Below, in pieces: positions 6,282 to 60,726 of a stretch of DNA of 64,000 bases. The position numbers and the translations under genes are program-made. The notes below the pieces were generated by a model. That model saw nothing but the letters and a program-made list of their open reading frames with translations, did not search any database and was not told where the DNA came from. The DNA comes from an uncultured Clostridia bacterium (lineage in GTDB: Bacteria; Bacillota; Clostridia; TANB77; CAG-508), in assembly GCA_934130085.1 (NCBI GenBank), contig CAKOXK010000002.1, positions 97,049 through 161,048 of the forward strand, in the 5' to 3' direction. Within the stretch, counting starts at the first letter, position 1. Each line of letters begins with the position of its first letter.

Positions 6282-6982
6282 TATTTGACTCCTTTCTTAA
6301 TACTTTTTATTTGATCTTCATTTAAAAGATCTTTTCTTTTTTTTAATGTTTCAATTAACGATTGTTCTTGTCTCCACTTTTCAATTTCTTGGTGATTACC
6401 AGATGTTAAAACCTCTGGTACTTTTTCGCCTTCAAATTCAAGTGGTCTTGTATATTGAGGATACTCAAGTAAATTGTTTGAAAATGACTCCTCATCAGTA
6501 GAGCCTTCACTTAAAACTCCTTTAACATATCTTGATACAGAATCTATTAAAATCATTGCTGGAAGCTCTCCACCTGTAAGCACATAATCTCCAACTGAAA
6601 TTTCCTCATCTACAATTTTATCAAGAACTCTTTGGTCTATTCCTTCATAATGCCCACATAATAAAACTAAATGTTTTTCTTTAGAAAGATTTTTCACAAT
6701 TTGTTGATTTAAAGTTTTTCCTTTAGGCGTTAAATATATAACTTTAGCATTTTCTTTATCATTTATAGAATTATATGCATTATATACAACATCAGCCTTC
6801 ATTATCATTCCGGCTCCACCACCATAAGGTGTATCATCAACATGCTTGTGCTTATCTTTTGAGAAATCTCTTATATTTATTAAATTTAAATCAATTAACT
6901 TATTGTTGATAGCTCTTCCAATTATGCTTTCTTTAATTGCTGAAAACATTTCTGGGAAGAGTGTAAGTACATCAATCTTCAC
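6281..6982 (-). CDS. trmD: tRNA (guanine37-N1)-methyltransferase
   Basis: 233 aa starting '[13 protein letters not shown]', with SPOUT motifs 'PYGGGAGM' and '[13 protein letters not shown]'. Confidence 0.92.
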
Positions 6983-7028
6983 TAAAAATATATCCTTTCT
7001 CCATAAGATAAATAATCTATATACAATT

Positions 7029-7502
7029 TTATATAAGTCCTTTTATTATATGCACTATTATCTTTTGATTCTCGATATCGATTTTCTTGATTACATCTGG
7101 TATTGCTGGAAGTAAAATATTGTTAACCTGGTAGATATCATTGGCACCAGTATTAAATATATCATCTAACTTACCAAGAAGTTTTCCCTCATCAGTGTAA
7201 ACATCTAGTCCAATTAAGTCTTCTATATAATACTCTCCTTCTTTTAATTTAGGCAAATCTACTCTATCAATCTCAATCTCTTTGTTTTTAAAATCTTCAA
7301 CCAAATTGATATCATCTAACCCTTTGATTTTAATTATAACAACATTTTTTTGATTTCTTGATTTTGATAATGTGTATTCCTTGTTGTCAATATAAATTTT
7401 TGAAAGTTCATCAATATAATCAACATAAGGATATACTTTAAGTTCACCTTTAATTCCGAAGGTATTTACAATTTTACCAATCTTAATTCTTTCTTCTTTC
7501 AT
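7029..7502 (-). CDS. rimM: 16S rRNA processing protein RimM
   Basis: 157 aa with 'IGKIVNTFGIKGELKV' and a PRC-barrel C-terminus, positioned between the rpsP/KH gene and trmD. Confidence 0.85.
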   Translation of the reverse strand: MKEERIKIGKIVNTFGIKGELKVYPYVDYIDELSKIYIDNKEYTLSKSRNQKNVVIIKIKGLDDINLVEDFKNKEIEIDRVDLPKLKEGEYYIEDLIGLDVYTDEGKLLGKLDDIFNTGANDIYQVNNILLPAIPDVIKKIDIENQKIIVHIIKGLI

Positions 7503-12533: not shown

Positions 12534-13469
12534 TTAGTTCTTTATATTCTCAATCTCTTCCTTAGATAATGAAGTAATGTCTTGAATTTCTTCTACTGAG
12601 AAATTCTTTGCTAACATTCTCTTTACAATTTCTTGTTGTTTCTTCTTTTCTCCCAATATCTGCCCCTCTTTTAGACCCTCTCTTTTTCCATCTTCTAATG
12701 CATGAGTAATCGCATTCTTTTCATCCATTATTGCTTTTTCTCTTAATTCTGCTACTCTTCTTAACTCTTCTTGCTGACTTATTTCATCTAAGTTCTGCAT
12801 TGCTTCTTTTAATTCTTTATTGGTTTCCATTGCTTTAAAAACCTCCTCTTGATTAGGATTATCCAAAAACAATACCCACTGTGCCAATTCATTATTTGGC
12901 TCTCTCTCCAGTGTTTTCTTTGCCTTCGATATTTCAATTATATAAATCTGAAACATATCTGTCAATACTAAATTTAAGCCTGTGGTCACCTCTGTTATTT
13001 TCCATTCTGTACATATATTTTCTAGTGCTTTTGTCTTCTCTAATGGAAAATCTATTATTATTATTCCAATTACTTTGTTTAAATCCTGATAAATATTTCC
13101 TTTCTGTAATTGGCTCGAGTAAATTCTGCTCCAATAATACAAGAACCTAGCTTCTGTGTCTTGGTTATCAACTAATTGTATCTCTACATCACATATTCTA
13201 CCATCTCCTAATGTTGCTTTTAAATCCAAAATTCCTAACTTTTCTTCTGGATATTTACCAAAAACGTGCCTGTCATTATCAAGTTTTATATCATTTATTT
13301 TTTCTTTTATTACTGATGATATAAGTGCTTTGGTAATTCCTTCATTTCCCTCTCTAAATAATGAATGAAACACAACATCAATTTTCGGTTTTAATAGCTT
13401 TTCTTTGTTTTCTTTTTCACCTTCATTATTATTGTTTTTCTCTTTAGTTAGATTTTGTTTTTTGACCAT
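12534..13469 (-). CDS. Rpn-family recombination-promoting nuclease / putative transposase (PD-(D/E)XK, YhgA-like)
   Basis: 311 aa with 'IDVVFHSLF', 'LDLKATLGDGRICDVEIQ' and a C-terminal 'EGLKEGQILGEKKKQQEIVKRMLAKNFSVEEI' typical of the Rpn/TIGR01784 family. It borders the variable pilin-like locus. Confidence 0.7.
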   Translation of the reverse strand: MVKKQNLTKEKNNNNEGEKENKEKLLKPKIDVVFHSLFREGNEGITKALISSVIKEKINDIKLDNDRHVFGKYPEEKLGILDLKATLGDGRICDVEIQLVDNQDTEARFLYYWSRIYSSQLQKGNIYQDLNKVIGIIIIDFPLEKTKALENICTEWKITEVTTGLNLVLTDMFQIYIIEISKAKKTLEREPNNELAQWVLFLDNPNQEEVFKAMETNKELKEAMQNLDEISQQEELRRVAELREKAIMDEKNAITHALEDGKREGLKEGQILGEKKKQQEIVKRMLAKNFSVEEIQDITSLSKEEIENIKN

Positions 13470-14059
13470 AAAATACTATCTCCTTTTAATATATTTCTAC
13501 TTGCACAATCCGACTTAAAATATTTCAAAGTATACTGACATTACTCCTGCTCAAATTTATTTCAACTAATTTTATGGGATTCAATATTTAAGATAATTTT
13601 TTATTGTTTAAAACATATATAGAAAGTATATGATGAAATAAAAAAATTGAATAGCAGAGTGTATATAGAATGTACCTCCTTCCCAATCTTTTATTTAAAA
13701 TTACTTTTTTCTTCGCTTGAAAATTTTTCGATTTAATAATTTCTAGATTTATAATTCTTAGATTTAACAATTTCTAGATCTAACAATTTGAATAAATCAA
13801 TTAATTTGATAACACTAAAAAGTTTTAATATAACTAATTTCATCTTGAAATCTTGAAATTCTGAAATAATTTAAGCACAAAATGTACTAAATAGATGGTC
13901 TATTTATAACATATTTTGTGTTCAACGTAAACATTTTATGGTAATCTTTTTGAACTTTCGATTGACAAAATTCGACTTTATTTTTATTAACATATATTTA
14001 TTTACGCATTTAAATAAGTTGTCTAATACAAGTAAAATACAAGTTTATTAGGATACTTT

Positions 14060-14262
14060 TTAATTAATCTTTTAGATTAATTAAAAATTTATAAAAAATA
14101 AATACCATGAAAGCCTAGTAAAATCAACGCACAAAGCTATAGTATAAAAATCGTGTAATAAGAAAAAAAATTTAAAAATTTTTAAGTCAAAACTGTGATT
14201 TATTTACTGTAAGTAAGAGTAACGCGATTTTTACTTTTTAATTAATCTAAAAGCTTAATAAA
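14060..14262. promoter_or_regulatory. Invertible DNA element Inv1 (25-bp IRs flanking a ~153-bp segment), in FLIPPED orientation relative to Inv2-4
   Basis: Left IR 'ttaattaatcttttagattaattaa' (14060-14084) and right IR 'ttaattaatctaaaagcttaataaa' (14238-14262). The internal segment 14085-14237 is the reverse complement of the segments of Inv2, Inv3 and Inv4 (for example 'catgaaagcctagtaaaatcaacgc' versus 'gcgttgattttgcaaggctttcatg'). Confidence 0.8.
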
Positions 14263-14300
14263 AATTTACCTTCAAACTTCAAAAAGAGCCATATCATTTT

Positions 14301-14348
14301 GTACTGAAACCAAAAAACATCTAATCTTTAGTTTCAGTACATTTTATT
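14301..14348 (+). terminator. Plus-strand intrinsic terminator directly outside the right IR
   Basis: 10-bp perfect stem 'gtactgaaac...gtttcagtac' followed by 'attttatt'. It is part of a ~185-bp direct repeat shared with 15707-15890. Confidence 0.6.
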
Positions 14349-14521
14349 GATATGACTCCTTTTTTAATATAAAAATTATAAGCGTTTTACCTATTAAGAA
14401 ACTTATATTCAGTCTGTTATTTAAACATTACCTAACATTAATCTTAGACATACCAGTTAATTTGCATTTTAAAATTAATGTTACCTAATAAAAAATACGT
14501 TTTACTTTATTATTTACATTT

Positions 14522-15478
14522 CTATTTGTGTACAAGTCTTACAACACTTGATGAAACATGGTTTCCACATGTTACATACATAGAAGTTGAGGTCGCGCGA
14601 ACAAGATTTACACGCGCTTGTTGCCCTCCGGAATTACCACCTGTTCCCCACAATGAGGTTGCTCCTGATATAGACCATGCAATATTTCCATTAACATTAT
14701 TGCCAAGTCCAAAGCAAATATATAATTCACCAGGAATAGTAGTAATATACTGATTTGCCGATCCCACCCCTTGAATAGAAGTTATTGATCCTTCGGTTTT
14801 TCCATTATTATATCCATCTTTATATGAAGCACTATCGGTATTTACTCTACCATCAGCATCACTTACTCCCTTGTTATATGCGCCAGCTCCAGAAACATAT
14901 CCTTCTCCATTATGATACCCAGCTGGAATTTTAACATTTTCACTTCCAGTAGTAGATGCTGTCCACGCACCATTATTCTTCATGGTACCTGTTAGTCCTG
15001 TTTCAGATGCATTTGAAAATGTTGCTCCTTGAATTACTTGACTCTCTGTTGCATCTCCTGTTGCTCTCATTGCTTCTAGCTCCGCTACTTGCTGCTGTAG
15101 ATTCTCTATCTGTTTCTTTAATTTTTCTACCTCATCACTGCTTTCTGATGAACTACCTCCTCCTGTTGTTGAATTTCCACCAGTACTACCTCCTGAACTT
15201 GAACCTCCGTTTGAGGTAGCAGCTATCGCTTGCGTAATTTGATTCAATGTAAGTTGCTCTTGTAAGCTTGAATTTTGATATTGTTGTCCAGCATTTTTAG
15301 CCTGACCAACTATTCCTTTATCATCTAATGCAAGTTTTATTGTAATTCCTGAAAGAATTAGTAAAACAATAATTGTTATTACAAGTGATAATATAGTTAC
15401 ACCGGTTTCTCTCATTTCACGTTTTTTATAATGTTTTTGCTTTATGTTATTTACTTTTCTCATTCTTAATTTCTCCAT
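14522..15478 (-). CDS. Pilin-like surface protein (type-IV-pilin-like N-terminal hydrophobic segment lacking Glu5, G/S-rich linker, coiled coil, divergent C-terminal domain)
   Basis: The N-terminus is basic leader + 'ETG|VTILSLVITIIVLLILSGITIKLALDDKGIVGQAKNAG'. The first ~210 aa are shared with the next gene. The C-terminus ends 'VTCGNHVSSSVVRLVHK'. Inv2 lies 50 bp upstream. Confidence 0.65.
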   Translation of the reverse strand: MEKLRMRKVNNIKQKHYKKREMRETGVTILSLVITIIVLLILSGITIKLALDDKGIVGQAKNAGQQYQNSSLQEQLTLNQITQAIAATSNGGSSSGGSTGGNSTTGGGSSSESSDEVEKLKKQIENLQQQVAELEAMRATGDATESQVIQGATFSNASETGLTGTMKNNGAWTASTTGSENVKIPAGYHNGEGYVSGAGAYNKGVSDADGRVNTDSASYKDGYNNGKTEGSITSIQGVGSANQYITTIPGELYICFGLGNNVNGNIAWSISGATSLWGTGGNSGGQQARVNLVRATSTSMYVTCGNHVSSSVVRLVHK

Positions 15479-15528
15479 TATAATCCCTAAAAGCCTTAAA
15501 TTTATTGGTTTACACCATTTATCTAGTT

Positions 15529-15731
15529 TTAATTAAGCTTTTAGATTAATTAAAAAATGAAAATTAAAGAATTCCTACTCTAAGTAAGAATTGCCCTGAT
15601 TTTCTATTCTAAAAGCTTTCGTTTTTTTCTTATTACACAAATTTTACGAAAGTATAAAAAGCGTTGATTTTGCAAGGCTTTCATGTTATTTTACTTATAT
15701 AAAATTTTAATTAATCTAAAAGCTTAATAAA
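15529..15731. promoter_or_regulatory. Invertible DNA element Inv2 (orientation X)
   Basis: IR-A 'ttaattaagcttttagattaattaa' (15529-15553) and IR-B 'ttaattaatctaaaagcttaataaa' (15707-15731) are inverted repeats of each other. The segment carries conserved 'TTGATT-N17-TATTTT' on the plus strand and 'GTGTAATAAG' on the minus strand. Confidence 0.8.
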
Positions 15732-15770
15732 AAATTTACCTTCATACTTCAAAAAGAGCCATATCATTTT

Positions 15771-15818
15771 GTACTGAAACTAAAAAAAATCTAATTTTTA
15801 GTTTCAGTACATTTTATT
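15771..15818 (+). terminator. Plus-strand intrinsic terminator outside IR-B (copy of the 14301 hairpin)
   Basis: 'gtactgaaac-N20-gtttcagtac' followed by 'attttatt'. Confidence 0.6.
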
Positions 15819-15923
15819 GATATGACTCCTTTTTTTAATATAAAAATTATAAGCGTTTTACCTATTAAGAAACTTATATTATCTATTCTTGCTTCTCACT
15901 GTACTTATCGTTTTTTGTTTCTT

Positions 15924-16925
15924 CTAATTCATAATCAAATATGCATGCATTGGTGTTGACCAGCTAATTGTATTATCGTAACGTGTTGCTCCATCATCAG
16001 TCCATAATCTTGCTCTCATTGTTGCAGCTAATGACGTTGTTAGTATCCCGCTTTTTGCATCATAGCTTTTGTTGAATGTTGCTCTATAATAAGCTCCTAC
16101 TCTCTTTTCTGCATTACATGTTCCACTTACGTTTTCTTTTGATATCGAGTTTTCTGCAAGCTCTACTAGGAAATTACTTGAACTTAATTTTGTATAGTCA
16201 ATTCCAAGGGCTTTGCATAGTGATACTATATTAAATGACGTTCCTGTACCTAAATCAACGAATTTTCCAAGTCCAAAATCACTTGGAGATTCTTTTACTG
16301 CTTTTTTACCTGCCTCAACACCGGAATTGTATGCTCCTGATAAATCTACATATCCGTTTCCATTGTGATAACCTTCAGGTACTGTTACCTTTCCGTTACC
16401 AGTAGTTGACGTAGTCCACGCTCCATTATTTTTCATTGTACCAGTTAGTCCTGATTCAGAAGAGTTAGAAAAAGTGGCCCCTTGAATTACTTGATCTACT
16501 GTTGCTCCTCCTGTTGCCTGTGTTGCTTCTAATTCTGTTACTTGTTGTTGCAACTCTTCAATCTGCTTTTTTAGTCTGTTAACTTCATCACTATTTCCTG
16601 ATGAACTTCCTCCTGATTCTGAACCACTTCCGCTACCTCCTGAACCTGTAATTCCATTTGAAGCATCAGCTATTGCTTGTGTAGCTTGATTCAATGCTAC
16701 TTGCTCCTGTACACTAGCATTTTGATATTTTAATCCTGCATTTTTAGACTGACCAACTATTCCTTTATCATCTAATGCAAGTTTTATTGTAATTCCTGAA
16801 AGAATTAGTAAAACAATAATTGTTATTACAAGTGATAAAATCGTAACACCTTCTTCTTTCATTGCACGTTTTCTATAATATTCTTTACTTATGTTTTTCA
16901 TTGTTCTCATTTTTAAACCCTCCAT
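15924..16925 (-). CDS. Pilin-like surface protein, paralog of 14522..15478 with a different C-terminal domain
   Basis: N-terminus 'KEEG|VTILSLVITIIVLLILSGITIKLALDDKGIVGQSKNAG'. The G/S linker, 'LKKQIEELQQQVTELEA' and 'QVIQGATFSNSSESGLTGTMKNNGAWT' are shared with the neighbouring gene, and the last ~110 aa are unrelated. It follows the large paralog at 17009..19231 after an 83-bp gap. Confidence 0.65.
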   Translation of the reverse strand: MEGLKMRTMKNISKEYYRKRAMKEEGVTILSLVITIIVLLILSGITIKLALDDKGIVGQSKNAGLKYQNASVQEQVALNQATQAIADASNGITGSGGSGSGSESGGSSSGNSDEVNRLKKQIEELQQQVTELEATQATGGATVDQVIQGATFSNSSESGLTGTMKNNGAWTTSTTGNGKVTVPEGYHNGNGYVDLSGAYNSGVEAGKKAVKESPSDFGLGKFVDLGTGTSFNIVSLCKALGIDYTKLSSSNFLVELAENSISKENVSGTCNAEKRVGAYYRATFNKSYDAKSGILTTSLAATMRARLWTDDGATRYDNTISWSTPMHAYLIMN

Positions 16926-17008
16926 TAGAATCCCCTAAAAGCATTAATTTTATTAGTTTTACATCTCTTATACTTTTTTAGTTAATTTTATACAGCCATT
17001 TTGTTTCT

Positions 17009-19231
17009 CTACTTTTCAACTTGCAAAACTGGACGAAGCCCACGGCACGAAGAGTCGTCGCCGGTGCTAGAGTAGAACACACCGCTCGATGTAACGGAGC
17101 CACTGCTTGAAACATAGCGTAAGTCGAAGCCTGCGCGGTACCAAACCGCACCAACGCAGCGAGACGAAAGCCAAAATTCAGCGCCAGCGCTGATATTACT
17201 TGTATTTCTGTTTGAACCTCCCCAATAATTATTGTATATAACTTTTAACCAAGGGTTACTTGACTTTTTATCGTTATTATATCTTTCGTAAGCATAGTTT
17301 CCTTTCTCTTCTGTTGAAAGCCATGTATTTATTCCAGTTGTATTCATGTTATATGATGTTATTTTAGCGTCAGAATAGCCTTTGCTTGCTCCTTTTGTTT
17401 TATCAATGTTCTCATATTGTGTAAATAGTGTTGGTGCATAGCTATTCCATGTACTTGTTATTTTATTTGGCGCACTTGTATCATCTGCATTTGCTGTCCA
17501 TAAGTTGCCAAAGTTACTTAATTTACTCTCATCCATGAAGTCTTCCCATTTTGCATCACGTGCTAACACTACCTTTACTTTTTTGGTTTGTCCGTTCTTT
17601 AGCTTTATTTCTGTTAAATTTCCATATAAATTATTACAGATTGTATCTAAAGCTAATACTCCGTTATTATATGCTGGTGCACCTGTTAATCTTACCTGTA
17701 ATTTTGTTGCTCTGTCTGCAATGTAATAGTCATACTTGCTTGTATCAAACGAACCTGATTGTAAATCATATCCTCCATCTGTTAGTTTTGACCATGTCAT
17801 ATCTGATTCTACTGTTGGCAAACCTGAATTTACTTTATTTACTGACCTTATATCTTTTCCAAGCAAAGCTGCTATTGAATCTGCTTTTACATATCCATGT
17901 GCTTCGCTTCCACTCTTATTCTTATAAAATCTATCTACATTTACTGCTGCACCTACTGATGTGTCTGAAACACTGTCAGCTGAAACTGTTATTACTGGAC
18001 GTAATGCGCAACTTCCACTTTGATTACTTCCTGTCGTATTATAGTTTTGATTTGTTTGAAACATTGTATATGTTGAATATGCTCCATCCGTTCTTGCAAA
18101 AGCAAATCGATAGTACTCATAAGATAAGTCTTCCGAATAAGGTGTTTTACCATCTGATCCTTGATTCCAGGTATAAGAATTCATTCTTGTTGCAAGCCAA
18201 TAATTGTTTCCTGTATTCATCATACTTACTGTTGATTTATTTGTTCTGTTTGGATTTGTAATTGTTGGTGATGTATTTTCAGCTAACATTTGTGTATTAC
18301 TTGATTGAGATGCTGATGTATTTGTTATATCAATATACTCACTTATTTGGTCTGTTGAATATCCATTGTTTGCTGTATCTAATTGATTTATTATTGGCTC
18401 TATCTTTTTATTGTTTTGGTAAGCTCTTGATACAGAATATGTTATATTATAAAAATCTTCTGCATTTACACTTCTTGCTGATAATACTTTTTTGCCGTTA
18501 ATCTCTAGATTTCCATATAACTTTGAGCAGATTTCGTTTAGTGCTTTTACTCCATTTGTATAGCCGTTAATTCCTGATATTGAAACCTCAAAACTTGTGT
18601 TTGCGTTGGCTATTAAGTTTACTGTTCCATCTTCATTTGTACTTAGTACTTTCCATCCTAAATCTTCTGTTTCAATCTCTCCAGCTTCTACCATTGCTAC
18701 ACCTGGTACATCTTGATTATCACTGTTTAATATTTGTCTTAAATGCCTATTTACTCCCTTGCCATCTGTTTTACCAATGTATGTGAATGTACCATCATCT
18801 AGATTTACCATGTAATTGTAACCTTTATATGCTACCTGTGCATAACCATCTCCATTATTTAAAAAATCTTCAAGACCATCATTTCCTACATTTGAACTCA
18901 AATAATCCGCAAGTCTTCCGGTATTTCCTTCTTGTTCCTTTTGAATGTCTATACCTGCTAAATACATGCTCATCTCTTCTTCAGCAGAAGATTTGTCTGA
19001 AACTGCTGTCGCATTTTTTGCTTTTCCAAGAATGCCATCATTGCTTACCATACTTATTGTTATACCTGCAAGAATTAGTAAAATTATAATTGTAATTACT
19101 AAAGCAATAATTGTAATTCCATCTTCACTTAATTTTCTTCTCATTACTTTATAATCTTCTAATTTATTTTTACTATTCAGTTTTGTCTTATTATTTTCAA
19201 CAAATTTTAAATCTTCTTTTAAACTTCCCAT
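17009..19231 (-). CDS. Large pilin-like surface protein, paralog 1 (pilin-like N-terminus + two C-type-lectin-fold-like domains; DGR-target-like C-terminus)
   Basis: 740 aa with N-terminus 'SEDG|ITIIALVITIIILLILAGITISMVSNDGILGKAKNA' and internal 'NYWLATR...GSCALRPVITV'. The C-terminal 'EFWLSSRC...SSCRGLRPVLQVEK' resembles Fib_succ_major/DUF1566/FGE-type CLec domains. Overall ~90% identical to the paralogs at 19625 and 22020. Confidence 0.7.
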   Translation of the reverse strand: MGSLKEDLKFVENNKTKLNSKNKLEDYKVMRRKLSEDGITIIALVITIIILLILAGITISMVSNDGILGKAKNATAVSDKSSAEEEMSMYLAGIDIQKEQEGNTGRLADYLSSNVGNDGLEDFLNNGDGYAQVAYKGYNYMVNLDDGTFTYIGKTDGKGVNRHLRQILNSDNQDVPGVAMVEAGEIETEDLGWKVLSTNEDGTVNLIANANTSFEVSISGINGYTNGVKALNEICSKLYGNLEINGKKVLSARSVNAEDFYNITYSVSRAYQNNKKIEPIINQLDTANNGYSTDQISEYIDITNTSASQSSNTQMLAENTSPTITNPNRTNKSTVSMMNTGNNYWLATRMNSYTWNQGSDGKTPYSEDLSYEYYRFAFARTDGAYSTYTMFQTNQNYNTTGSNQSGSCALRPVITVSADSVSDTSVGAAVNVDRFYKNKSGSEAHGYVKADSIAALLGKDIRSVNKVNSGLPTVESDMTWSKLTDGGYDLQSGSFDTSKYDYYIADRATKLQVRLTGAPAYNNGVLALDTICNNLYGNLTEIKLKNGQTKKVKVVLARDAKWEDFMDESKLSNFGNLWTANADDTSAPNKITSTWNSYAPTLFTQYENIDKTKGASKGYSDAKITSYNMNTTGINTWLSTEEKGNYAYERYNNDKKSSNPWLKVIYNNYWGGSNRNTSNISAGAEFWLSSRCVGAVWYRAGFDLRYVSSSGSVTSSGVFYSSTGDDSSCRGLRPVLQVEK
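17012..17180 (-). other. Putative DGR variable region (VR) at the 3' end of paralog 1
   Basis: The sense strand is adenine-depleted and GC-rich (~55% versus ~30% locally). Differences from the two paralogous copies are confined to codons with pattern [N][N]C/T (for example ggt/aat/ttt, cgc/atc/aac, ggc/aac/cac) and to third-position A/N changes. Confidence 0.75.
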
Positions 19232-19299
19232 TTTGATGTTTTCTCCTTTGAAATCTTGTAAAGCGTTACAATTACTGTATTTAGATTGTTTTTTTAATT

Positions 19300-19501
19300 T
19301 TAATTAAGCTTATAGATTAATTAAAAAAATAAAAAAGATGTTTTCTTACTCTCAGTAGAGAAAAATAAAGTTTTGTATTTTTTCTTTAACCTATTATCCT
19401 TATTACGCAATTTTTACACTTGAATCATAAGCGTTGATTTTACAAGGTTTTCATGTTATTTTTATCTTACTAGATTTTAATTAATCTATAAGCTTAATAA
19501 A
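19300..19501. promoter_or_regulatory. Invertible DNA element Inv3 (orientation X)
   Basis: IR-A 'ttaattaagcttatagattaattaa' (19300-19324) and IR-B 'ttaattaatctataagcttaataaa' (19477-19501). The segment is homologous and co-oriented with Inv2 and Inv4. It lies 69 bp upstream of the paralog-1 start. Confidence 0.8.
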
Positions 19502-19557
19502 AAAATATATTCATTATTAACTTTTTTTACTCTCTCTTCATAAATTTTTATATAATT

Positions 19558-19602
19558 ACACAGTATAATCAATTAAATATTGATTATACTGTGTTTTTTA
19601 TT
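19558..19602 (+). terminator. Plus-strand intrinsic terminator outside IR-B
   Basis: 16-bp stem 'acacagtataatcaat/attgattatactgtgt' with loop 'taaat' followed by 'tttttatt'. It sits 23 nt beyond the stop of paralog 2. Confidence 0.65.
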
Positions 19603-19624
19603 AAATTTCTTTAGATTCTTTTTT

Positions 19625-21880
19625 CTATTTAGCAACTTGTAGGACTGGACGAAGCCCACGGCACGAAGAGAGGACGTCGGTGGTAGAAAGGAACACATAG
19701 TCCGCGGTAATAGAGCCACTGCTTGAAACACAGCGTAAGAGGAAGTTAGCGATGCTCCAACGCGCATTAACGCAGCGAGACGAAAGCCAAAATTCAGCGC
19801 CAGCGCTGATATTACTTGTATTTCTGTTTGCTCCACCACCCCAACAAGCATTGTATATAACTTTTAACCAAGGATTACTTGATTTTTTATCGTTATTATA
19901 TCTTTCGTAAGCATAGTTTCCTTTTTGGTCTGTTGAAAGCCAATTGCTTGCGCCACTTGTGCTCATATTATATGATGTTATTTTTGCATCTGAATATCCT
20001 TTGCTTGCTCCTTTTGTTTTATCAATGTTCTCATATTGTGTAAATAGTGTTGGTGCATAGCTATTCCATGTTGATGTTATTTTATTTGGCGCACTTTTAT
20101 CATCTGCATTTGTTGTCCATAAGTTGCCAAAGTTACTTAATTTACTTTCATCTATGAAATCTTCCCATTTTGCATCACGTGCTAACACTACCTTTACTTT
20201 TTTGGTTTGTCCGTTCTTTAACTTTATTTCTGTTAAATTTCCATATAAATTATTACAGATTGTATCTAAAGCTAAAACTCCATTATTATATGCTGGTGCT
20301 CCTGTTAATCTTACCTGTAATTTTGTTGCTCTATCTGCTATATAGTAATCATATTTACTTGTATCAAATGAGCCTGATTGTAAATCATATCCGCCATCTG
20401 TTAGTTTTGACCATGTCATGTCTGATTCTACTGTTGGCAAACCTGAATTTACTTTATTTACTGACTTTATATCTTTTCCAAGTAATGTTGCTATTGAATC
20501 TGCTTTTACATATCCATGTGCTTCGCTTCCACTCTTAGTCTTATAGAATCTATCTACATTTACTGTTGCACCTACAGATGTGTCTGATACACTGTCTGCT
20601 GAAACTGTTATTACTGGACGTAATGAACAGCTTCCACTTCCATTAGAACCTGATGTTGCATAGTTCTGTCCTACTGTAAATAATGTATACGACGACCTTG
20701 CTCCATCTGTCCTTGCATAACCTAATTGGTAAAAATCTCTTGATAGCTCCTCTGAATATGGTGTTTTTCCATCTGACCCGCTATTCCAATCATAATATGC
20801 AGATCTTGTTGCAAGCCAATAATTGTTTCCTGTATTCATCATGCTTACTGTTGATTTATTTGTTCTGTTTAGATTTGTAATTGTTGGTGATGTATTTGCT
20901 GCTAGCATTTGTGTGTTACTTGATTGAGAGGCTGATGTATTTGCTATATCAATATAATCACTTATTTGGTCTGTTGAGAAACCATGATTTGCTGTATCTT
21001 TTTGATTTATTATTGGTTCTATCTTTCTATTGTTTTGGTAAGCTCTTGATACAGAATATGTTACATTATAAAAGTCTTCCGCATTTACACTTCTTGCTGA
21101 TAATACTTTCTTTCCATTAATCTCTAGGTTTCCATATAACTTTGAGCAAATTTCATTTAGTGCTTTTACACCATTTGTATAGCCATTAATTCCTGATATT
21201 GAAACTTCAAATCCTGTATTGGTATTTGCTATTAGGTTGACTGTTCCATCTTCATTTGTACTTAGTACTTTCCAGCCTAAGTCCTCTGTTTCAATCTCTC
21301 CTGCTTCTACCATTGCAATTCCTGGTACATCTTGATTATCATTACTTAGTACTTGCTTTATATGTCTGTTTACTCCTTTGCCATCGGTTTTTCCTATATA
21401 TGTGAATGTTCCATCATCTAGATTTACCATGTAATTGTGACCTTTATACGCTACTTGAGCATATCCATCTCCATTATTTAAGAAGTCTTCAACTTCGCCA
21501 TTCCCTAAATCATCTTGTATATAATCAGCCAATCTTTTATTTTCATCTTCTGCTTTTGAAACCTCTAAACTTGCTAAGTACATACTCATTTCATCCTCGG
21601 CTGATGCCTTTTCTGAAACTACTACCGCGTTTTTTGCCTTTCCAAGAATTCCATCATTGCTTACCATACTTATTGTTATACCTGCTAAAACTAATAAGAC
21701 AATAATTGTAACTACTAAAGCTATTATTGTTATTCCTGCTTGTTTTAATTTATAGTTTTTCAATTTATACTTTTTAAATTTTAATTCATTTATAGAATTT
21801 TTCATACACTCGTTTTTACTTAATTTTAAGCTTTTTTCATCATACCTCATTTTTGCTTTTTCTCCTTTAAAATCTCTCAA
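19625..21880 (-). CDS. Large pilin-like surface protein, paralog 2
   Basis: 751 aa with N-terminus 'KQAG|ITIIALVVTIIVLLVLAGITISMVSNDGILGKAKNA'. Near-identical to paralogs 1 and 3 except the N-terminal leader, a patch around residues 355-410 and the C-terminal VR. Confidence 0.7.
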   Translation of the reverse strand: MRDFKGEKAKMRYDEKSLKLSKNECMKNSINELKFKKYKLKNYKLKQAGITIIALVVTIIVLLVLAGITISMVSNDGILGKAKNAVVVSEKASAEDEMSMYLASLEVSKAEDENKRLADYIQDDLGNGEVEDFLNNGDGYAQVAYKGHNYMVNLDDGTFTYIGKTDGKGVNRHIKQVLSNDNQDVPGIAMVEAGEIETEDLGWKVLSTNEDGTVNLIANTNTGFEVSISGINGYTNGVKALNEICSKLYGNLEINGKKVLSARSVNAEDFYNVTYSVSRAYQNNRKIEPIINQKDTANHGFSTDQISDYIDIANTSASQSSNTQMLAANTSPTITNLNRTNKSTVSMMNTGNNYWLATRSAYYDWNSGSDGKTPYSEELSRDFYQLGYARTDGARSSYTLFTVGQNYATSGSNGSGSCSLRPVITVSADSVSDTSVGATVNVDRFYKTKSGSEAHGYVKADSIATLLGKDIKSVNKVNSGLPTVESDMTWSKLTDGGYDLQSGSFDTSKYDYYIADRATKLQVRLTGAPAYNNGVLALDTICNNLYGNLTEIKLKNGQTKKVKVVLARDAKWEDFIDESKLSNFGNLWTTNADDKSAPNKITSTWNSYAPTLFTQYENIDKTKGASKGYSDAKITSYNMSTSGASNWLSTDQKGNYAYERYNNDKKSSNPWLKVIYNACWGGGANRNTSNISAGAEFWLSSRCVNARWSIANFLLRCVSSSGSITADYVFLSTTDVLSSCRGLRPVLQVAK
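19628..19796 (-). other. Putative DGR variable region at the 3' end of paralog 2
   Basis: Same A-depleted GC-rich block. It retains AAY-type codons (aat, aac, aac) exactly where the other two copies carry substituted codons. Confidence 0.75.
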
Positions 21881-21918
21881 AGCATTGATACACCTGCGTT
21901 CACATCACTTTTTACTTT

Positions 21919-21943
21919 TTAATTAATCTTTTAGATTAATTAA
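21919..21943. repeat. Solo inverted-repeat site (A'-type) between paralog 3 and paralog 2; no partner IR, no invertible segment
   Basis: 'ttaattaatcttttagattaattaa', identical to the left IR of Inv1, lies 39 bp upstream of the paralog-2 start. The downstream 'aaactattttattgatatgtctttt' resembles the tail of the 185-bp repeat. Confidence 0.7.
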
Positions 21944-22019
21944 AAAATTTAAAATCAAATTCTATAGCAAACGACATATTATTTAAAACTATTTTATTGA
22001 TATGTCTTTTCCTTATATT

Positions 22020-24329
22020 TTATTTAACAACTTGCAAGACTGGACGAAGCCTACGGCACGAAGAGTCGACGCCGGTGCCAGAGTGGAACACACAGTCCGT
22101 TATAATGGATCCACTGCTCGAAACAAAGCGTAAGATGAAGTGCGCGTTGTACCAATCCGCAAAAACGCAGCGAGACGAAAGACAAAAGTCAGCGCCAGCG
22201 CTGATATTACTTGTATTCCTGTTTGCTCCACCACCCCAATAAGCATTGTATATAACTTTTAACCAAGGATTACTTGATTTTTTATCGTTATTATATTTTT
22301 CGTAAGCATAGTTTCCTTTTTGGTCTGTTGAAAGCCAATTGTTTGTGCCACTTGTGCTCATATTATATGATGTTATTTTTGCGTCTGAATATCCTTTGCT
22401 TGCTCCTTTTGTTTTATCAATGTTCTCATATTGTGTAAATAGTGTTGGTGCACAGCTATTCCCTGTTACTGTTATTTTATTTGGCGCACTTGTATCATCT
22501 GCATTTGTTGTCCATAAGTTGCCAAAGTTACTTAATTTACTTAATTTACTTTCATCCATGAAATCTTCCCATTTTGCATCACGTGCTAACACTACCTTTA
22601 CTTTTTTGGTTTGTCCGTTTGCTAACTTTATTTCTGTTAAATTTCCATATAAATTATTACAGATTGTATCTAACGCTAAAACTCCATTATTATATGCTGG
22701 AGCACCTGTTAATCTTACCTGTAATTTTGTTGCTCTATCTGCTATATAGTAACCATATTTATTTGTATCAAATGAGCCTGATTGTAAATCATATCCGCCA
22801 TCTGTTAGTTTTGACCATGTCATATCTGATTCTACTGTTGGCAAACCTGAATTTACTTTATTTACTGACCTTATATCTTTTCCAAGTAAAGCTGCTATTG
22901 AATCTGCTTTTACATGTCCATGTGCTTCGCTTCCACTCTTAGTCTTATAGAATCTATCTACATTTACTGTTGCACCTTCAGATGTGTCTGAAACACTGTC
23001 AGCAGAAACTGTTATTACTGGACGTAGTGAACAATTTGCACTTGCATTATTACCTGTTGTATTATAATTTGCGTTCGTATTAAACACCGTAGATGCAGAA
23101 TATGCTCCATCAGTTCTTGCAAAAGCTAATTGATAGGATTCATTTGACAACTCTTCAGAATATGGTGTTTTTCCATCGGTTCCATGATCCCAACCACAAG
23201 ATGCAGATCTTGTTGCAAGCCAATAATTGTTTCCTGTATTCATCATATCTATTGTTGATTTGTTTGTTCTGTTTAGATTTGTAATTGTTGGTGACGCATT
23301 TGCTGCTAGCATGTGTGTGTTACTTGATTGTGCTCCTGATGTATTTGCTATATCAATATAATCACTTATTTGGTCTGTTGAGAAACCATGATTTGCTGTA
23401 TCTTTTTGATTTATTATTGGCTCTATCTTTTTATTATTTTTATAGGCTCTTGATACAGAATATGTTACATTATAAAAGTCTTCCGCATTTACACTTCTTG
23501 CTGAAAGTACTTTCTTTCCATTAATCTCTAGACTTCCATATAACTTTGAGCAGATTTCATTTAGTGCCTTTACACCATTTGTATAGCCATTAATTCCTGA
23601 TATTGAAACTTCAAATCCTGTATTTGTATTTGCTATTAGGTTGACTGTTCCATCTTCATTTGTACTTAGTACTTTCCAGCCTAAGTCCTCTGTTTCAATC
23701 TCTCCTGCTTCTACCATTGCAATTCCTGGTACATCTTGATTATCATTACTTAGTACTTGCTTTATATGTCTGTTTACTCCTTTGCCATCGGTTTTTCCTA
23801 TATATGTGAATGTTCCATCATCTAGATTTACCATGTAATTGTGACCTTTATATGCTACCTGTGCATAACCATCTCCATTATTTAAAAAATCTTCAAGACC
23901 ATCATTTCCTATATTTGCACTTAAATAGTCAGCAAGTCTTCCTGTATTTCCTTCTTGTTCTCTTTGAATGTCTATACCTGCTAAATACATACTCATTTCT
24001 TCTTCAGCAGAAGATTTGTCTGAAACTGCTACAGCATTTTTTGCTTTTCTAAGAATTCCATCATTGCTTACCATACTTATTGTTATACCTGCTAAAACCA
24101 ATAAGACAATAATTGTAACTACTAAAGCTATTATTGTTATTCCTGCTTGAGTAATTTTATATTTTCTTAATTTGCATTTATTTATTTGATTGCTGTTACT
24201 AATTTTCTTATTTTCATTGTCCCTGTTTTTCATTTTTAATCTCATTCCTTCCTTGCCTCCGCTATCGCTAAGGCACAAATCCTTATTAAATCTAGAGTAT
24301 CTCATTTTTAATCTCCGTATAATGCGCAT
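22020..24329 (-). CDS. Large pilin-like surface protein, paralog 3 (first gene of the array)
   Basis: 769 aa with a long basic leader, then 'TQAG|ITIIALVVTIIVLLVLAGITISMVSNDGILRKAKNA'. It has a conventional AT-rich upstream region shared divergently with the RHH gene at 24719. Confidence 0.7.
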   Translation of the reverse strand: MRIIRRLKMRYSRFNKDLCLSDSGGKEGMRLKMKNRDNENKKISNSNQINKCKLRKYKITQAGITIIALVVTIIVLLVLAGITISMVSNDGILRKAKNAVAVSDKSSAEEEMSMYLAGIDIQREQEGNTGRLADYLSANIGNDGLEDFLNNGDGYAQVAYKGHNYMVNLDDGTFTYIGKTDGKGVNRHIKQVLSNDNQDVPGIAMVEAGEIETEDLGWKVLSTNEDGTVNLIANTNTGFEVSISGINGYTNGVKALNEICSKLYGSLEINGKKVLSARSVNAEDFYNVTYSVSRAYKNNKKIEPIINQKDTANHGFSTDQISDYIDIANTSGAQSSNTHMLAANASPTITNLNRTNKSTIDMMNTGNNYWLATRSASCGWDHGTDGKTPYSEELSNESYQLAFARTDGAYSASTVFNTNANYNTTGNNASANCSLRPVITVSADSVSDTSEGATVNVDRFYKTKSGSEAHGHVKADSIAALLGKDIRSVNKVNSGLPTVESDMTWSKLTDGGYDLQSGSFDTNKYGYYIADRATKLQVRLTGAPAYNNGVLALDTICNNLYGNLTEIKLANGQTKKVKVVLARDAKWEDFMDESKLSKLSNFGNLWTTNADDTSAPNKITVTGNSCAPTLFTQYENIDKTKGASKGYSDAKITSYNMSTSGTNNWLSTDQKGNYAYEKYNNDKKSSNPWLKVIYNAYWGGGANRNTSNISAGADFCLSSRCVFADWYNAHFILRFVSSSGSIITDCVFHSGTGVDSSCRRLRPVLQVVK
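22023..22190 (-). other. Putative DGR variable region at the 3' end of paralog 3
   Basis: Same A-depleted GC-rich block with the third set of codon variants (ttt, gat, aac, cac, atc, ttt...). Confidence 0.75.
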
Positions 24330-31921: not shown

Positions 31922-32833
31922 TTACTTTATCATACACTCATTTAAGAAGTCCTTATACACTGTTGCAATCACCTTGTTAGCTTTCTCTTCCATATTTTTA
32001 AGCATGACAATATCTGTATTATTAAAATAATTGTTAAATGCAGTGTTCTTAGGTTCTATTACTCCTTTCCTGGCTTTTAAAATAGATTCCAATTCAAAAT
32101 TTCTAGTCCTACGAAATTCACGTTTGTGTTCTCTATATCCAACTTCATACCTCATGTTTCTTGTCATATCTTTTATTGCCGCCAAAAACATTGCGCTATT
32201 TCCTGATAAACAACTTTTTTTATCTAAATCTCCAAACATATGCATTAGGTTTCTTAACGAATAGTTATTGTTTGCTAATTCGGGCATGAAAAACTTGCTT
32301 ATTGTTCCTGTATAGTCTAAAGAATATATACTATATGCCCATTTTTCTTTTTCTAGAGATGCATAATATTTTGTATAATTTTCTTCCAAATATATATTCC
32401 GAAAAGATACATTTTTAAAATGCTTTTCAGCACTTCTACGAATAAATTCAGTAGTTTCTTTATAAACAACATCCATAGGCATTAACCTAATAAATGTTAA
32501 ATATGAAGAATCATCTTGATTTAACTTTTCTCTATTTTTTTCTGTTATCAACCTCTTGTTTAGCAACTTTTGCAAAATTTCATTTTTGTCTGCTATCAAT
32601 GTTTTGTCATTCTTTACTGGATTAAAGTCAAATCCTGATAGGTATTTTTCGTAAAACCCTACAGTTCCATGAGGCATTATTTTTTTACTTTTCTTAGGTA
32701 AATTGTGCCCATAATACACTATAATTGAATTTTTATCATAAAATTGAGGGTCTGATTGCCTCGCCGTATATATTAAAGCAATTGTTTTTTCAATTGATTC
32801 ACCGCTATTTTGTAACGAAATAATTTTCTTCAC
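31922..32833 (-). CDS. Hypothetical protein (no confident family assignment)
   Basis: 303-aa ORF with good RBS context, adjacent to a GT4-like glycosyltransferase. Confidence 0.4.
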   Translation of the reverse strand: MKKIISLQNSGESIEKTIALIYTARQSDPQFYDKNSIIVYYGHNLPKKSKKIMPHGTVGFYEKYLSGFDFNPVKNDKTLIADKNEILQKLLNKRLITEKNREKLNQDDSSYLTFIRLMPMDVVYKETTEFIRRSAEKHFKNVSFRNIYLEENYTKYYASLEKEKWAYSIYSLDYTGTISKFFMPELANNNYSLRNLMHMFGDLDKKSCLSGNSAMFLAAIKDMTRNMRYEVGYREHKREFRRTRNFELESILKARKGVIEPKNTAFNNYFNNTDIVMLKNMEEKANKVIATVYKDFLNECMIK

Positions 32834-58361: not shown

Positions 58362-60351
58362 TTATGCATCCCAATATATTCCTCTTTCACCAATAGAAAG
58401 TCCCCATGGTGCATCTGCTATTGAATCTTTTTTCTTTGGTATGTGTACCTCCTTCAAATTATTGCAACTTTCAAATGTTCTTCCATTTAGGCTCTTAATT
58501 GATTCTGGTAAATATAGTTTTGTTAATTTATTACATCCCATAAAAACTTGATTTTCTATTGTTTGTACATCTTTATTAAGTTTCAAATCTGTCATTTCAT
58601 ATTGATCTGCAAAACAAAATGCATAAATTCTTGTTATACCACTTTTTAACGTAAATTCTCCTTTAATTTTATATAATACAGAATAAATTATTTTATCATC
58701 TTTTGAATACAAAATATCATTTTCAACTTTTAAATAAGGATTATCATTTGATACATTTACTTTTACTCCAATTGAACCTCTAAAAGCCCATGTTGAAAAA
58801 TTTTTTACTTTGCTTCCAATATTTAATGTTTTTACCTTTCTACCGGCTGTTGATGTAATAGCTGCTCCAAAATATGTTACTGTATCAGGAATATTTATTA
58901 CTGTGGCATTTAAACAACCTTGAAATGGATAGTCACTATTAATTGTTTCAACTTTTTCAGTTAATGTTATTTCTGCTGCATCAGAAAAACAATATACTAG
59001 ATTTATAGGAGATTTTTTGGTATAAATACATTTTTCACTTACTTTAAAGTTTTCATTTTTATCATCTATAATAATGTTTTTAAGTGTTTTAGGATATTTT
59101 GAACCAACTTCAGGCAATTTTTCAATTGATTGTGGTACCTTTAATGTTGTTATTTTTAAATTACTAAAATAAGTATCAAACTCCTTCGTTCCATCTGGAA
59201 TACTAAGTTCTGTTTTGCCTTCATAATATTTACTAGATAAAAAAACAATTTTTCTATTTTCTCCTTTAGTTTGTAGCATACCGTTACTGTATTCATAACT
59301 TGCGTTGCTAGGATCTATTTTTATATCTACTAGGGATTTGCACTTTCCGAATGCTTCTGAAGAAATATTATTTACTTTTTTGGTTATTTTTATATTTTTT
59401 AAATTTACATCATTATAAAATGCACATGCTGAGATTGTTTCAGTATTATTCCCATCAAATGTCACATCATTTAGTTTTGTACATGAATGAAATGTTCCGC
59501 CAACCTAAGTATTTTATTTGTGGAGGAATATTTACTTTTTCAAGTGTAGTACATGCATAAAATACTTGATTACCTAAATAATTTAATGAGCATGGCAATT
59601 TTATTTCTTTTATATTTGTGCATCCCTGAAATGCAGCACCTCCTAATCCTTCACATCCTTCGACAGTTCCATCAGAATTTTCTTTTGTTTCAAATATTAC
59701 TTCTTCAATTTCTGCATTATTATAAAATGCTTGTGCTTTTATTTCTTTGCATGAATACGGAATTACTACCTTCTTTAATCCTGCTGTATTTGAAAATGCT
59801 CCTGCTCCTATTGATGTTACTGTTTCTGGTAAAGTTAGTGTTCCTTGACTATCCATTAACATTAAGTTTGTTTCTGATGATTTTAGTTCTCCTCCTTCAT
59901 CTATGTTGTATGGATTTATTTCTATTCCTGATGTTTTTGCTATTTCTAACATTGCTTTATCTTGTGATTTGTATAGTAGCTCTCCTTTTATTACTTCAAA
60001 ATTATCTATATATTCTTCTTTTAAGTCTTTTATTATTGTTTTTATATTTCCACCTTGTTTCTTTTCTTCCTCTGTTTTGGTGTTATATGTTAATGAATCT
60101 TTTCCGGCATTTAGGCTTTCTATATAAAAGTTTTCATTTGATATTATTTTTTCTGTTTTATATAATTCAAATTCTTCACTATACTTTGTAAAGTCAACTA
60201 TTATGGCTGCTTTTTTCGTTTTTGATAATAATCCATTGTTACTCAATGTTTGTGTTAATGTTATTCCTGCTATTATTAACATTACTATTATTGTGATTAC
60301 AAGAACGATTAATGTAATTGCATTTTCTGCTTTATTTTTAGAGCTTTTCAT
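58362..60351 (-). pseudogene. Pilin-like N-terminus fused to BspA-type leucine-rich repeats; split by an apparent +1 frameshift near 59497-59505
   Basis: The upstream ORF (59467..60351) has 'AENA|ITLIVLVITIIVMLIIAGITL' and LRR_5-like 'SIGAGAFSNTAGLKKVVIP...AFQGCTNIKEIKLP'. The downstream ORF (58362..59465) continues the same repeats. The junction frame reads 'IKYLGGGTFHSCTKLNDVTFDG' if one T in 'aggttggcgg' is removed. Confidence 0.6.
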
Positions 60352-60420
60352 TTTTTAGTTATCTCCTTATAAAATCTAGCAAAGCATTGGTATTACTGAG
60401 CTTAACGTGCTTTTTCATTT

Positions 60421-60623
60421 TTAATTAAGCTTTTAGATTAATTAAAAAATAAAAATCAGGGCTTCCTTACTCTCTGTAAGTTTTGCTCTGATTTTTAATT
60501 TTTATTTACTTTATAAAAAGTTTATTACACAATTTTTACACAGGCTGCGTAATCATTGATTTTACAAGGCTTTCGTGATATTTTAGCATTGTTAAATTTT
60601 AATTAATCTAAAAGCTTAATAAA
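60421..60623. promoter_or_regulatory. Invertible DNA element Inv4 (orientation X), upstream of the LRR pilin-like gene
   Basis: IR-A 'ttaattaagcttttagattaattaa' (60421-60445) and IR-B 'ttaattaatctaaaagcttaataaa' (60599-60623). The segment is homologous and co-oriented with Inv2 and Inv3. It contains a strong bidirectional hairpin 'aaaaatcagggc...gctctgattttt'. Confidence 0.8.
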
Positions 60624-60726
60624 AAAGTTGATAATCTTGTTTCTAGACTTTTCCCTTATTTTGTATTAAAATAAAGACTGTATTTTAAATATAATTTTTT
60701 AATAAAATGTAGAAAGTGAATGTATT

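Follow-up and report, generated by a model that had tools for sequence, protein, structure and literature searches.

Introduction

Type IV pilus operons of Clostridia such as C. perfringens and C. difficile are arranged as pilA-pilD-pilB-pilC-pilM/N/O-pilT, and their pilins carry a glutamate at position +5 after the prepilin cleavage site (Glu5). In Sulfolobus, the class III signal peptide also serves many surface proteins that are not part of filaments. Glu5 is almost invariant in bacteria and often absent in archaea, whose type IV pilins and archaellins have class III signal peptides; the residue is dispensable for cleavage and needed for the homopolymer assembly of classical pilins (PMC4471445). 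Here we analyse a stretch of 64,000 nt from an uncultured Clostridia bacterium (assembly GCA_934130085.1, contig CAKOXK010000002.1, positions 97,049 to 161,048; hereafter the window, meaning this whole stretch), in which seven genes share a pilin-like N-terminus that has no Glu5 and leads into different C-terminal domains.

Modular pilins, in which a pilin module is joined to a further domain, are an established concept (S. sanguinis PilB and PilC; Raynaud et al. 2021; PMC8179133). Many architectures are known, and those described so far are defined through the IPR012902/N_methyl signature and carry Glu5 (PMC8179133). Pili have also been connected with diversity-generating retroelements (DGRs). 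Gut DGRs of Bacteroidota are linked to type V pili, and the cellular DGR targets of Bacillota have been described only as resembling phage receptor-binding proteins (bioRxiv 10.1101/2024.11.15.621889). In DGR surveys, 'GspG-type pilin' domains appear in targets as scarce oddities (PMC11661182). Our searches of the open-access PMC and bioRxiv literature (subscription journals were outside their scope) returned no description of DGR-diversified type IV modular pilins, of the motif strings reported below, or of a clostridial pilin family without Glu5.

We read the common N-terminus as a divergent form of the class III (type IV prepilin) signal peptide followed by the alpha1 helix, and the window genes as Glu5-less modular pilins, three of which have been diversified by a DGR, a reading to which we give a probability of roughly two in three. 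The window proteins are best read as non-canonical modular pilins because of their family homology, the register of their alignments to pilins of known structure, and the operon synteny of their relatives.

Results

A common pilin-like N-terminus in seven genes

The window is a chromosomal segment of about 30 per cent GC that encodes SpoVAD, SipL, YunB, PrkC, RelA, RecJ, and tRNA synthetases, and its host is a spore-forming member of the Clostridia. A six-frame scan with a regular expression (core: basic leader-G/A↓[IV]T[IL]..[LM][VA][IV]T[IV][IV], where ↓ marks the putative cleavage site) found the common N-terminus in exactly seven open reading frames (ORFs), all on the minus strand, and in no other (Table 1). 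Residue -1 is Gly in six of the seven and Ala in the gene that encodes BspA-type leucine-rich repeats (LRRs), where the leader reads ..AENA↓ITLIVLVITIIVMLIIAGITL. After a charged leader and this Gly or Ala, the full consensus is [IV]-T-[IL]-[ILV]-[ASV]-[LM]-[VA]-[IV]-T-[IV]-[IV], and in all seven genes about twenty-five uncharged residues (ITLIALVVTIIVLLILAGVTI..) follow the cleavage site. Position +5 is Ala or Ser in six genes, Val in the LRR gene, and Glu in none. Further downstream, six of the seven share a degenerate motif, [SD][ND]xG[IL][ILV]x[KQ][AST]K[NK]A, which the 698-aa gene lacks. Its exact form SNDGILGKAKNA occurs in two genes only; the third large paralog has SNDGILRKAKNA, the LRR gene SNNGLLSKTKKA, and the two small genes carry DDKGIVGQ[AS]KNA at the same position.

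These are the same seven ORFs, at the same coordinates, that a first-pass annotation of the window had grouped by their pilin-like N-terminus. Some of its details needed adjustment. Its assignment of Ala/Ser to position +5 fails for the LRR gene, and the absence of Glu5 holds throughout; the downstream string that it quoted for five genes is exact in two and degenerate in six; and its long leaders (11-60 aa) vary with the start codon chosen, the median among relatives being 14 aa. It had also named a series of profile hidden Markov model (HMM) searches as a check. Against Pfam and NCBIfam, the seven proteins give only LRR_5 (in the LRR gene) and N_methyl below threshold. As most of the suggested searches failed, the pilin reading looked weak by the HMM measure that the annotation itself had proposed.

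We built a profile of the seven N-termini and ran it exhaustively against 1.84 billion cluster representatives (50 per cent identity clusters). At E<=1e-3 the family comprises 30,209 representatives, of which 10,090 remain at E<=1e-10. Among the best 145 of these, position -1 is Gly in 142 and Ala in three, Thr(+2) is found in all 145 and Thr(+9) in 144, and position +5 is Ala, Ser, or Val (122, 21, and two cases) and never Glu. The sequence logo of these 145 runs E(-3), [KRN](-2), [IV](+1), T(+2), L, [IV], [AS](+5), L, V, [VI], T(+9), I, and continues with A, G(+18), N-G(+28/29), [ILV][ILF]x[KQR][AS]KxA, and E(+48). Short matches of 136-222 aa in the first search were considered as stand-alone pilins and ruled out, being contig-end fragments of the large paralogs.

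A scan of one genome per species gave more than 408 relatives, and the best 80 of these (1.17 Mb in all) are referred to below as the related loci, with individual loci labelled L001, L008, and so on. Nearly all are gut metagenome-assembled genomes (MAGs) named 'uncultured Clostridia' or 'Clostridium sp. CAG:xxx', from humans, rabbits, chickens, and ruminants. They hold 104 family members, with a mature length of 42-825 aa (median 369). C-termini vary widely across the family as a whole and include LRR_5, GLUG, coiled coils, and C-type-lectin folds. Among 82 longer members from the profile search, the curated families touched most often were N_methyl (16/82) and GspG (15/82), all with weak scores. 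The canonical class III motif with Glu5 occurs neither in the window nor in 84 related loci (together ~1.3 Mb).

Searched against the PDB, the module profile has type IV pilins in each of its first five places (MshA, S. sanguinis PilE1, PilA, and a pair of Geobacter pilins). Their E-values are marginal (0.017-0.16), as is usual for a match over some twenty-five residues; the alignments are in exact register, with kG↓ITLiALVvTIi against G↓FTLIELVVVII (G-1/T2/L3/I4/x5/L6/V7). Much stronger is the match between the window N-termini and the pilins of the operons described in the next section, which hhalign aligns with a probability of 99.6 per cent (E 6e-24) over 65 columns, from the end of the leader through the whole alpha1 helix. 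Two of those operon members, both with Ala5 (77 aa in L001 and 141 aa in L026), exceed the Pfam gathering score for N_methyl at 22.4 and 22.9 bits.

Pilus operons in related genomes

We searched all ORFs of the window and the 80 loci with phmmer, using E. coli HofB, HofC, GspE, GspF, and GspO as queries. In twelve of the 80 loci, a family member is followed some 2 kb downstream, in the same orientation, by PilB-like and PilT-like ATPases, and eleven of the twelve also have a PilC-like platform protein. In L001, Pfam identifies T2SSE (E 3e-102), a second T2SSE protein of 378 aa (6e-41), and T2SSF (4e-25). This is also the one operon in which PilD is confirmed, as a prepilin peptidase with an A24_N_bact domain (E 7e-32). 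Two ORFs upstream in L001, of 558 and 236 aa, have no Pfam match; their size and position make them candidates for PilM/N/O-like proteins. In two further loci, family members adjoin Peptidase_A24 genes.

Ten operons are present with both ends, and in each, between one and five family members of 74-167 aa stand in tandem at the start. They are followed, after some 0.9 kb (occupied by pilD in L001), by an Asp5 minor pilin, a second minor pilin, PilB, and the PilT-like ATPase, with PilC present in nine. The first minor pilin has the form G↓[FILMAV][TAV][GNT][ILAT]D (for example G↓FTGIDI.., in L001, L016, L026, and other operons), and the second G↓[IV]TL[TIV][STA][LI], with no acidic residue at +5. 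Apart from the Asp5 of the first minor pilin, no +5 residue in these operons is acidic, and what seems to be the major subunit has Ala5 and can be as short as 74-77 aa.

Variable regions at the ends of three paralogs

In the three large paralogs, the final ~140 nt have a GC content of 52-57 per cent (57 per cent in the 740-aa paralog), against ~30 per cent in the genome. Each of these variable regions (VRs) is an invariant skeleton broken by doublets at codon positions 1 and 2 (GGT/AAT/TTT, GTT/CGT/GAT, CGC/ATC/AAC, GGC/AAC/CAC). Variation is limited to 35 of the 140 columns, 29 of them first or second codon positions. Of the 105 invariant columns, 37 are T, 35 C, 27 G, and six A, whereas upstream of the VR adenine makes up 44 per cent of the invariant columns and the variable sites are mostly third positions. 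Across forty-one homologs in the same frame we found thirty-seven distinct VR strings, in which the hypervariable positions hold almost only residues encoded by NNY codons. Judged on nucleotide pattern, the regions bear the mark of adenine mutagenesis from an AAY-rich template.

A second VR in the middle module of these proteins was considered and ruled out, as its invariant sites are A-rich and its variable sites are spread over all codon positions, a pattern of ordinary divergence. The 318-aa gene also has a GC-rich 3' end, and was ruled out as a VR carrier because its C-terminus is conserved in a homolog (P0141). In the 698-aa family, positions 652-691 are hypervariable; the window copy has K, E, Q, and M there and is not GC-rich.

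Only the three VRs themselves match the invariant skeleton in a search of the window for a template repeat (TR). The expected TR skeleton is TCGTCTCGCTGCGTT-AAT-GCG-AAT-TGG-AAC-AAC-..., and patterns specific for the TR or the VR skeleton had zero matches in viral contigs and JGI metagenomes. The window has neither a DGR reverse transcriptase (RT) nor an Avd gene, and no RT lies within 10 kb of the large-paralog homologs in L083, L086, and L087.

A complete DGR cassette does accompany a family member in L008. Here a 465-aa target (..NQNA↓ITLIALVVTIVVLLILAGVSI..) ends in a VR and is followed by a MutS_I-like ORF, bAvd, an Asn-rich TR (WLASPAVNANSDNANFGPGDVNNGNVNAGNN..), and the RT, with E-values of 7.5e-15 for RVT_1, 9e-31 for Brt, and 2.8e-10 for bAvd. 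From the gene content of this locus, the family is a genuine class of DGR targets. The accessory ORF beside bAvd (11434-11883 in L008) matches MutS domain I at E 5e-7. Back in the window, a perfect GC-rich palindrome, TCAGCGCTGGCGCTGA, lies directly upstream of each VR (17178-17193, 19794-19809, and 22189-22204).

The VRs were absent from the first-pass annotation, as were the frameshift in the LRR gene and the inverted-repeat cassettes described below.

C-terminal modules

The two small genes have ~204 N-terminal residues in common and unrelated tails (repeats D6 and D7). Each large paralog contains two homologous modules ~297 aa apart (E 7e-11; repeat D8). The 698-aa protein yields a confident model over residues 220-698 (pLDDT, the predicted local distance difference test score, of 80-93), and its fold matches the C-type-lectin proteins TaqVP, TvpA, and Mtd. 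In a PDB sequence search neither the 698-aa nor the 740-aa protein has a match, and the homologs listed for either all lack a precomputed Pfam domain and have uninformative names. None of the seven window proteins matches FGE-sulfatase (PF03781), DUF1566 (PF07603), or Fib_succ_major (TIGR02145) at E<=1 in Pfam or NCBIfam.

LRR_5 (PF13306, cut-off 27.7 bits) is found in both 59467-60351 (78.5 bits, E 5e-22) and 58362-59465 (114.3 bits), two ORFs that are jointly colinear with a 730-aa homolog (P0149). The frameshift near 59500 that separates them is not at a homopolymer tract, and the independent assembly L085 has the same split, for which reason this is probably a real pseudogene or truncated variant.

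For this part of the locus, the first-pass annotation held up well in outline. It had proposed a common module of ~210 aa in the small genes, close to the ~204 aa found, and the repeated modules of the large paralogs and the BspA-type LRRs were both borne out, the latter in both ORFs of the split gene. Its FGE-sulfatase domain is right at the level of fold, as a C-type lectin in the 698-aa gene, and fails at the level of HMM family; the DUF1566 and Fib_succ_major profiles that it listed for checking drew a blank.

Two other candidates were set aside. Sortase anchoring was considered because of the sortase gene at 38054-38746; no LPXTG-type C-terminus was noticed in reading the translations, and no motif search was made. 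A phage origin was rejected, as PHROGs gave no meaningful matches.

Table 1. Positions of the pilin-like genes, variable regions, and inverted-repeat cassettes within the window.
Feature	Coordinates	Strand	Remarks
Small pilin-like gene, 318 aa	14522..15478	-	Leader ..RETG↓VTILSLVITIIVLLILSGITI, Ser/Gly linker, coiled coil, C-terminal domain without assigned fold
Small pilin-like gene, 333 aa	15924..16925	-	N-terminal residues in common with 14522-15478, different tail
Large modular pilin-like paralog, 740 aa	17009..19231	-	Pilin-like module at ~residues 38-160, then two homologous ~297-aa modules
Large modular pilin-like paralog, 751 aa from TTG start	19625..21880	-	True start uncertain
Large modular pilin-like paralog, 769 aa	22020..24329	-	True start uncertain
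DGR-type VR of 740-aa paralog, 3' end of gene	17028..17167	-	VR 3' end is invariant GC-rich TCTTCGTGCCGTGGGCTTCGTCCAGT, a candidate initiation of mutagenic homing site
DGR-type VR of 751-aa paralog	19644..19783	-	
DGR-type VR of 769-aa paralog	22039..22178	-	
Pilin-like BspA-type LRR gene, frameshift-split near 59500	58362..60351	-	ORFs 59467-60351 (294 aa) and 58362-59465 (367 aa)
Pilin-like gene, 698 aa	61870..63966	-	Leader ..QESG↓VTLVAMAVTIVVLMMIA; residues 220-698 have an FGE-like C-type-lectin fold
Inverted-repeat-bounded cassette	15527..15733	.	Upstream of 318-aa gene
Inverted-repeat-bounded cassette	19298..19503	.	Upstream of 740-aa gene
Inverted-repeat-bounded cassette	60419..60625	.	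Upstream of LRR gene
Cassette copy, inner 147 nt inverted relative to other copies	14058..14264	.	Flank 14260-14409 is a direct repeat of 15730-15880
Lone repeat-motif copy (truncated cassette)	21917..21946	.	Upstream of 751-aa gene

Inverted-repeat cassettes and neighbouring genes

A cassette of ~205 nt, bounded by inverted repeats of 26-30 nt (TTTTAATTAAGCTTTTAGATTAATTAAAAA), stands before pilin-like genes. The repeat motif has twelve matches where none is expected by chance, and copies of the cassette are also found outside the window, in L083 (818-1005 and 5514-5716) and L085 (4202-4404). Measured against the flanks, which are conserved, the inner 147 nt are found in either orientation, both in the window (14058-14264 against the others) and before two paralogous genes in L083. 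Orthologous cassette sites in two assemblies have the same orientation, and no recombinase was seen in the window. From its sequence, the cassette is a candidate for an invertible promoter (a phase switch) or for an element resembling a miniature inverted-repeat transposable element.

The array of paralogs is bordered by a PD-(D/E)XK 'transposase' gene (PDDEXK_2, Rpn-like; 12534-13469), and in L083 two PDDEXK_2 copies (6274-7251 and 13466-14401) bracket it. The number of large paralogs differs by strain, with three in the window and L086 and one in L083 and L087. The array thus has the look of a recombination-prone island, as these observations suggest.

Elsewhere in the window, an ADP-ribosyltransferase exoenzyme-like gene (35057-36511, E 1e-15) adjoins a Fic/DOC gene (36557-37354). 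Two ORFs beside this pair, at 31922-32833 and 34257-35027, have no family match.

Discussion

If the seven proteins are modular pilins, their precursors would insert in the membrane through the 25-residue hydrophobic stretch, and a PilD-type A24 peptidase encoded elsewhere in the genome would cut after the Gly or Ala. The mature proteins would then be displayed by a type IV pilus machine (PilB/PilT/PilC/PilM-N-O) as in related gut Clostridia, where the filament subunits would be the short members (74-167 aa) of the same Glu5-less family. Each window protein would join a small pilin module to a ligand-binding one, consisting of two tandem lectin-like modules, BspA-type LRRs, or an FGE-like C-type lectin, and such proteins may act in adhesion. 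In the three large paralogs, the last ~45 codons would be rewritten by a DGR acting in trans, and A-to-N mutagenesis of AAY codons would give a different binding surface to each copy and each strain. The family probably serves to present interchangeable binding domains, either on pili or on the surface of the cell. In this respect the proposal of the first-pass annotation, a pilus-like or anchored adhesin family with exchangeable domains, is supported by the PDB register, the homology to operon pilins, the synteny in relatives, and the variable C-termini.

A broader picture can be drawn more tentatively, and we regard it as possible but doubtful. The type IV pilus system, with an Asp5 minor pilin as its sole subunit acidic at +5, would serve as a general means of displaying dozens of modular pilins in each genome; DGRs acting in trans would hypermutate some of them, and invertible promoter cassettes would switch individual genes.

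The main rival to the modular-pilin reading is that the module is a plain signal-anchor. It would then be derived from a pilin and, either uncleaved or cleaved and unassembled, would tether surface proteins to the cytoplasmic membrane of a monoderm without forming a filament. We think this unlikely; it owes its remaining weight to how large the family is and to the absence of pilus genes nearby. The family is larger, with more copies per region, than usual pilin repertoires, and its 30,209 clusters, 104 members in 1.17 Mb, and median mature length fit a general membrane anchor equally well. Neither the seven window genes nor most other members stand beside pilus genes; PilD, PilB, and PilC were not found in the 64-kb window or in the 4.5 kb past its high-coordinate end, and the link to pili therefore depends on other genomes. 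Glu5 is missing, and engineered Glu5 mutants of classical pilins fail to homopolymerise (PMC4471445). No window protein reaches the N_methyl (PF07963) cut-off of 21.2 bits, the best score being 12.6 bits (E 0.11), for the 698-aa gene only. For the 740-aa paralog, the AlphaFold2 model is poor overall (mean pLDDT 40, from an alignment of forty-nine sequences that was too shallow), and a Foldseek search of the PDB with it returned no significant match. All of these points weigh against modular pilins. The model is locally confident only at residues 80-160 (pLDDT 72-85), where a helix (65-100) and four strands (120-154) point tentatively to a pilin fold for the N-terminal module. What a plain anchor leaves unexplained is the conservation of features that it has no need of, namely the near-invariant Gly(-1), Thr(+2), and Thr(+9) and the short charged leader, and a homology that spans the whole alpha1 helix, beyond its transmembrane part. 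Moreover, the same module heads the short subunit genes of ten pilus operons that have no other type of pilin, and PilD genes adjoin family members. The determinants of cleavage are kept and the determinant of assembly, Glu5, is lost; the family therefore retains the cleavage side of a prepilin and departs on the assembly side.

A variant of the modular-pilin reading, which we consider very improbable, is a display resembling a bindosome or pseudopilus. The proteins would be processed by PilD, and the type IV filament machine would build a short surface assembly or release them, by analogy with the class III signal peptides of archaeal sugar-binding proteins and the pseudopili of type II secretion; they would not be tip adhesins of long pili. 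The evidence for a class III signal peptide applies equally here, each genome has many diverse cargo proteins, and archaeal class III substrates often lack Glu5 (PMC4471445). The operons nonetheless hold a PilT-like retraction ATPase and tandem small pilin genes, which are typical of true retractile pili. A separate alternative concerns the hypervariable C-termini, which might stem from ordinary diversifying selection or from gene conversion between paralogs instead of a DGR; this too we judge improbable, if slightly less so. In its favour, and against our own reading, neither a DGR RT nor a TR was found in the window or in the adjoining 4.5 kb, and the scans of viral and JGI metagenome contigs were equally negative; any DGR behind these regions must therefore work from elsewhere in the genome or have disappeared. 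The VR of the 740-aa paralog is also identical in a second strain (L083, 7656-9926), in a protein otherwise only ~87 per cent identical, and because of this diversification may be slow or extinct in this lineage, or the VR may have been moved by recombination. At the position of the VR, the more distant homologs in L086 and L087 are AT-rich and generally diverged. Against this alternative stand the variation confined to one quarter of the columns and concentrated at codon positions 1 and 2, the invariant columns that are nearly free of A and sit in GC-rich sequence, and the hypervariable positions coded almost only by NNY. The homologous middle module has none of these features, and in L008 a DGR genuinely targets a family member.

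Nearly all bacterial type IV pilins are taken to carry Glu5 as their signature, and the tools that detect them, such as IPR012902 and PilFind-type patterns, rely on this residue. Should the short operon members prove to be the subunits of the filament, they would provide a natural case in which to study the assembly of bacterial type IV pili without the salt bridge from Glu5 to the N-terminus. A pilin module joined to a DGR-diversified lectin domain would give a concrete function to the poorly understood 'cellular' DGR targets of Bacillota, and the union suggests how uncultured commensals vary the specificity of their adhesion.

Comparison with known systems

Like the known modular pilins, the window proteins belong to a monoderm host, in which no secretin limits the size of the cargo. 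They differ in having Ala or Ser at +5, in scoring below N_methyl in the window, in the much larger size of the family, and in that some of their modules would be DGR-diversified C-type-lectin domains. The family is the modular-pilin idea in a form mostly invisible to the IPR012902 signature. The related loci have the same machinery as the type IV pilus systems of Clostridia and the same operon logic, from pilins through PilD and minor pilins to PilB, PilT, and PilC. In contrast to those systems, the gut-MAG operons have no Glu5 pilin; one minor pilin carries Asp5 and the apparent major subunits Ala5. The loss of Glu5 recalls the archaeal class III substrates, from which the family is set apart by the bacterial A24 N-terminal domain of the adjacent peptidase and by its motif, G↓ITLIALV, which is closest to the bacterial G↓FTLIELV.

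The resemblance to DGR-diversified C-type-lectin proteins (Mtd, TvpA, and TaqVP; the DUF1566 and FGE-sulfatase classes) extends to the C-terminal position of the VR, the change of AAY to NNY, the GC-rich invariant 3' end, the fold of the 698-aa protein, and the L008 cassette with its bAvd and RT. Unlike these, the window proteins have a pilin-type N-terminus, three targets lie side by side in a 64-kb stretch that has neither TR nor RT, and the DUF1566 and FGE-sulfatase models of Pfam are blind to them. A parallel in biological setting is with the DGR-diversified type V pilus adhesins of Bacteroides, which place a DGR-hypervariable binding module on a pilus subunit in gut bacteria; those are type V pilins made as lipoprotein precursors in Bacteroidota. 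If the broader picture drawn above is true, the system described here would be their counterpart in Bacillota, a programmable and phase-variable repertoire of adhesins on type IV pili that assemble without the Glu5 salt bridge.

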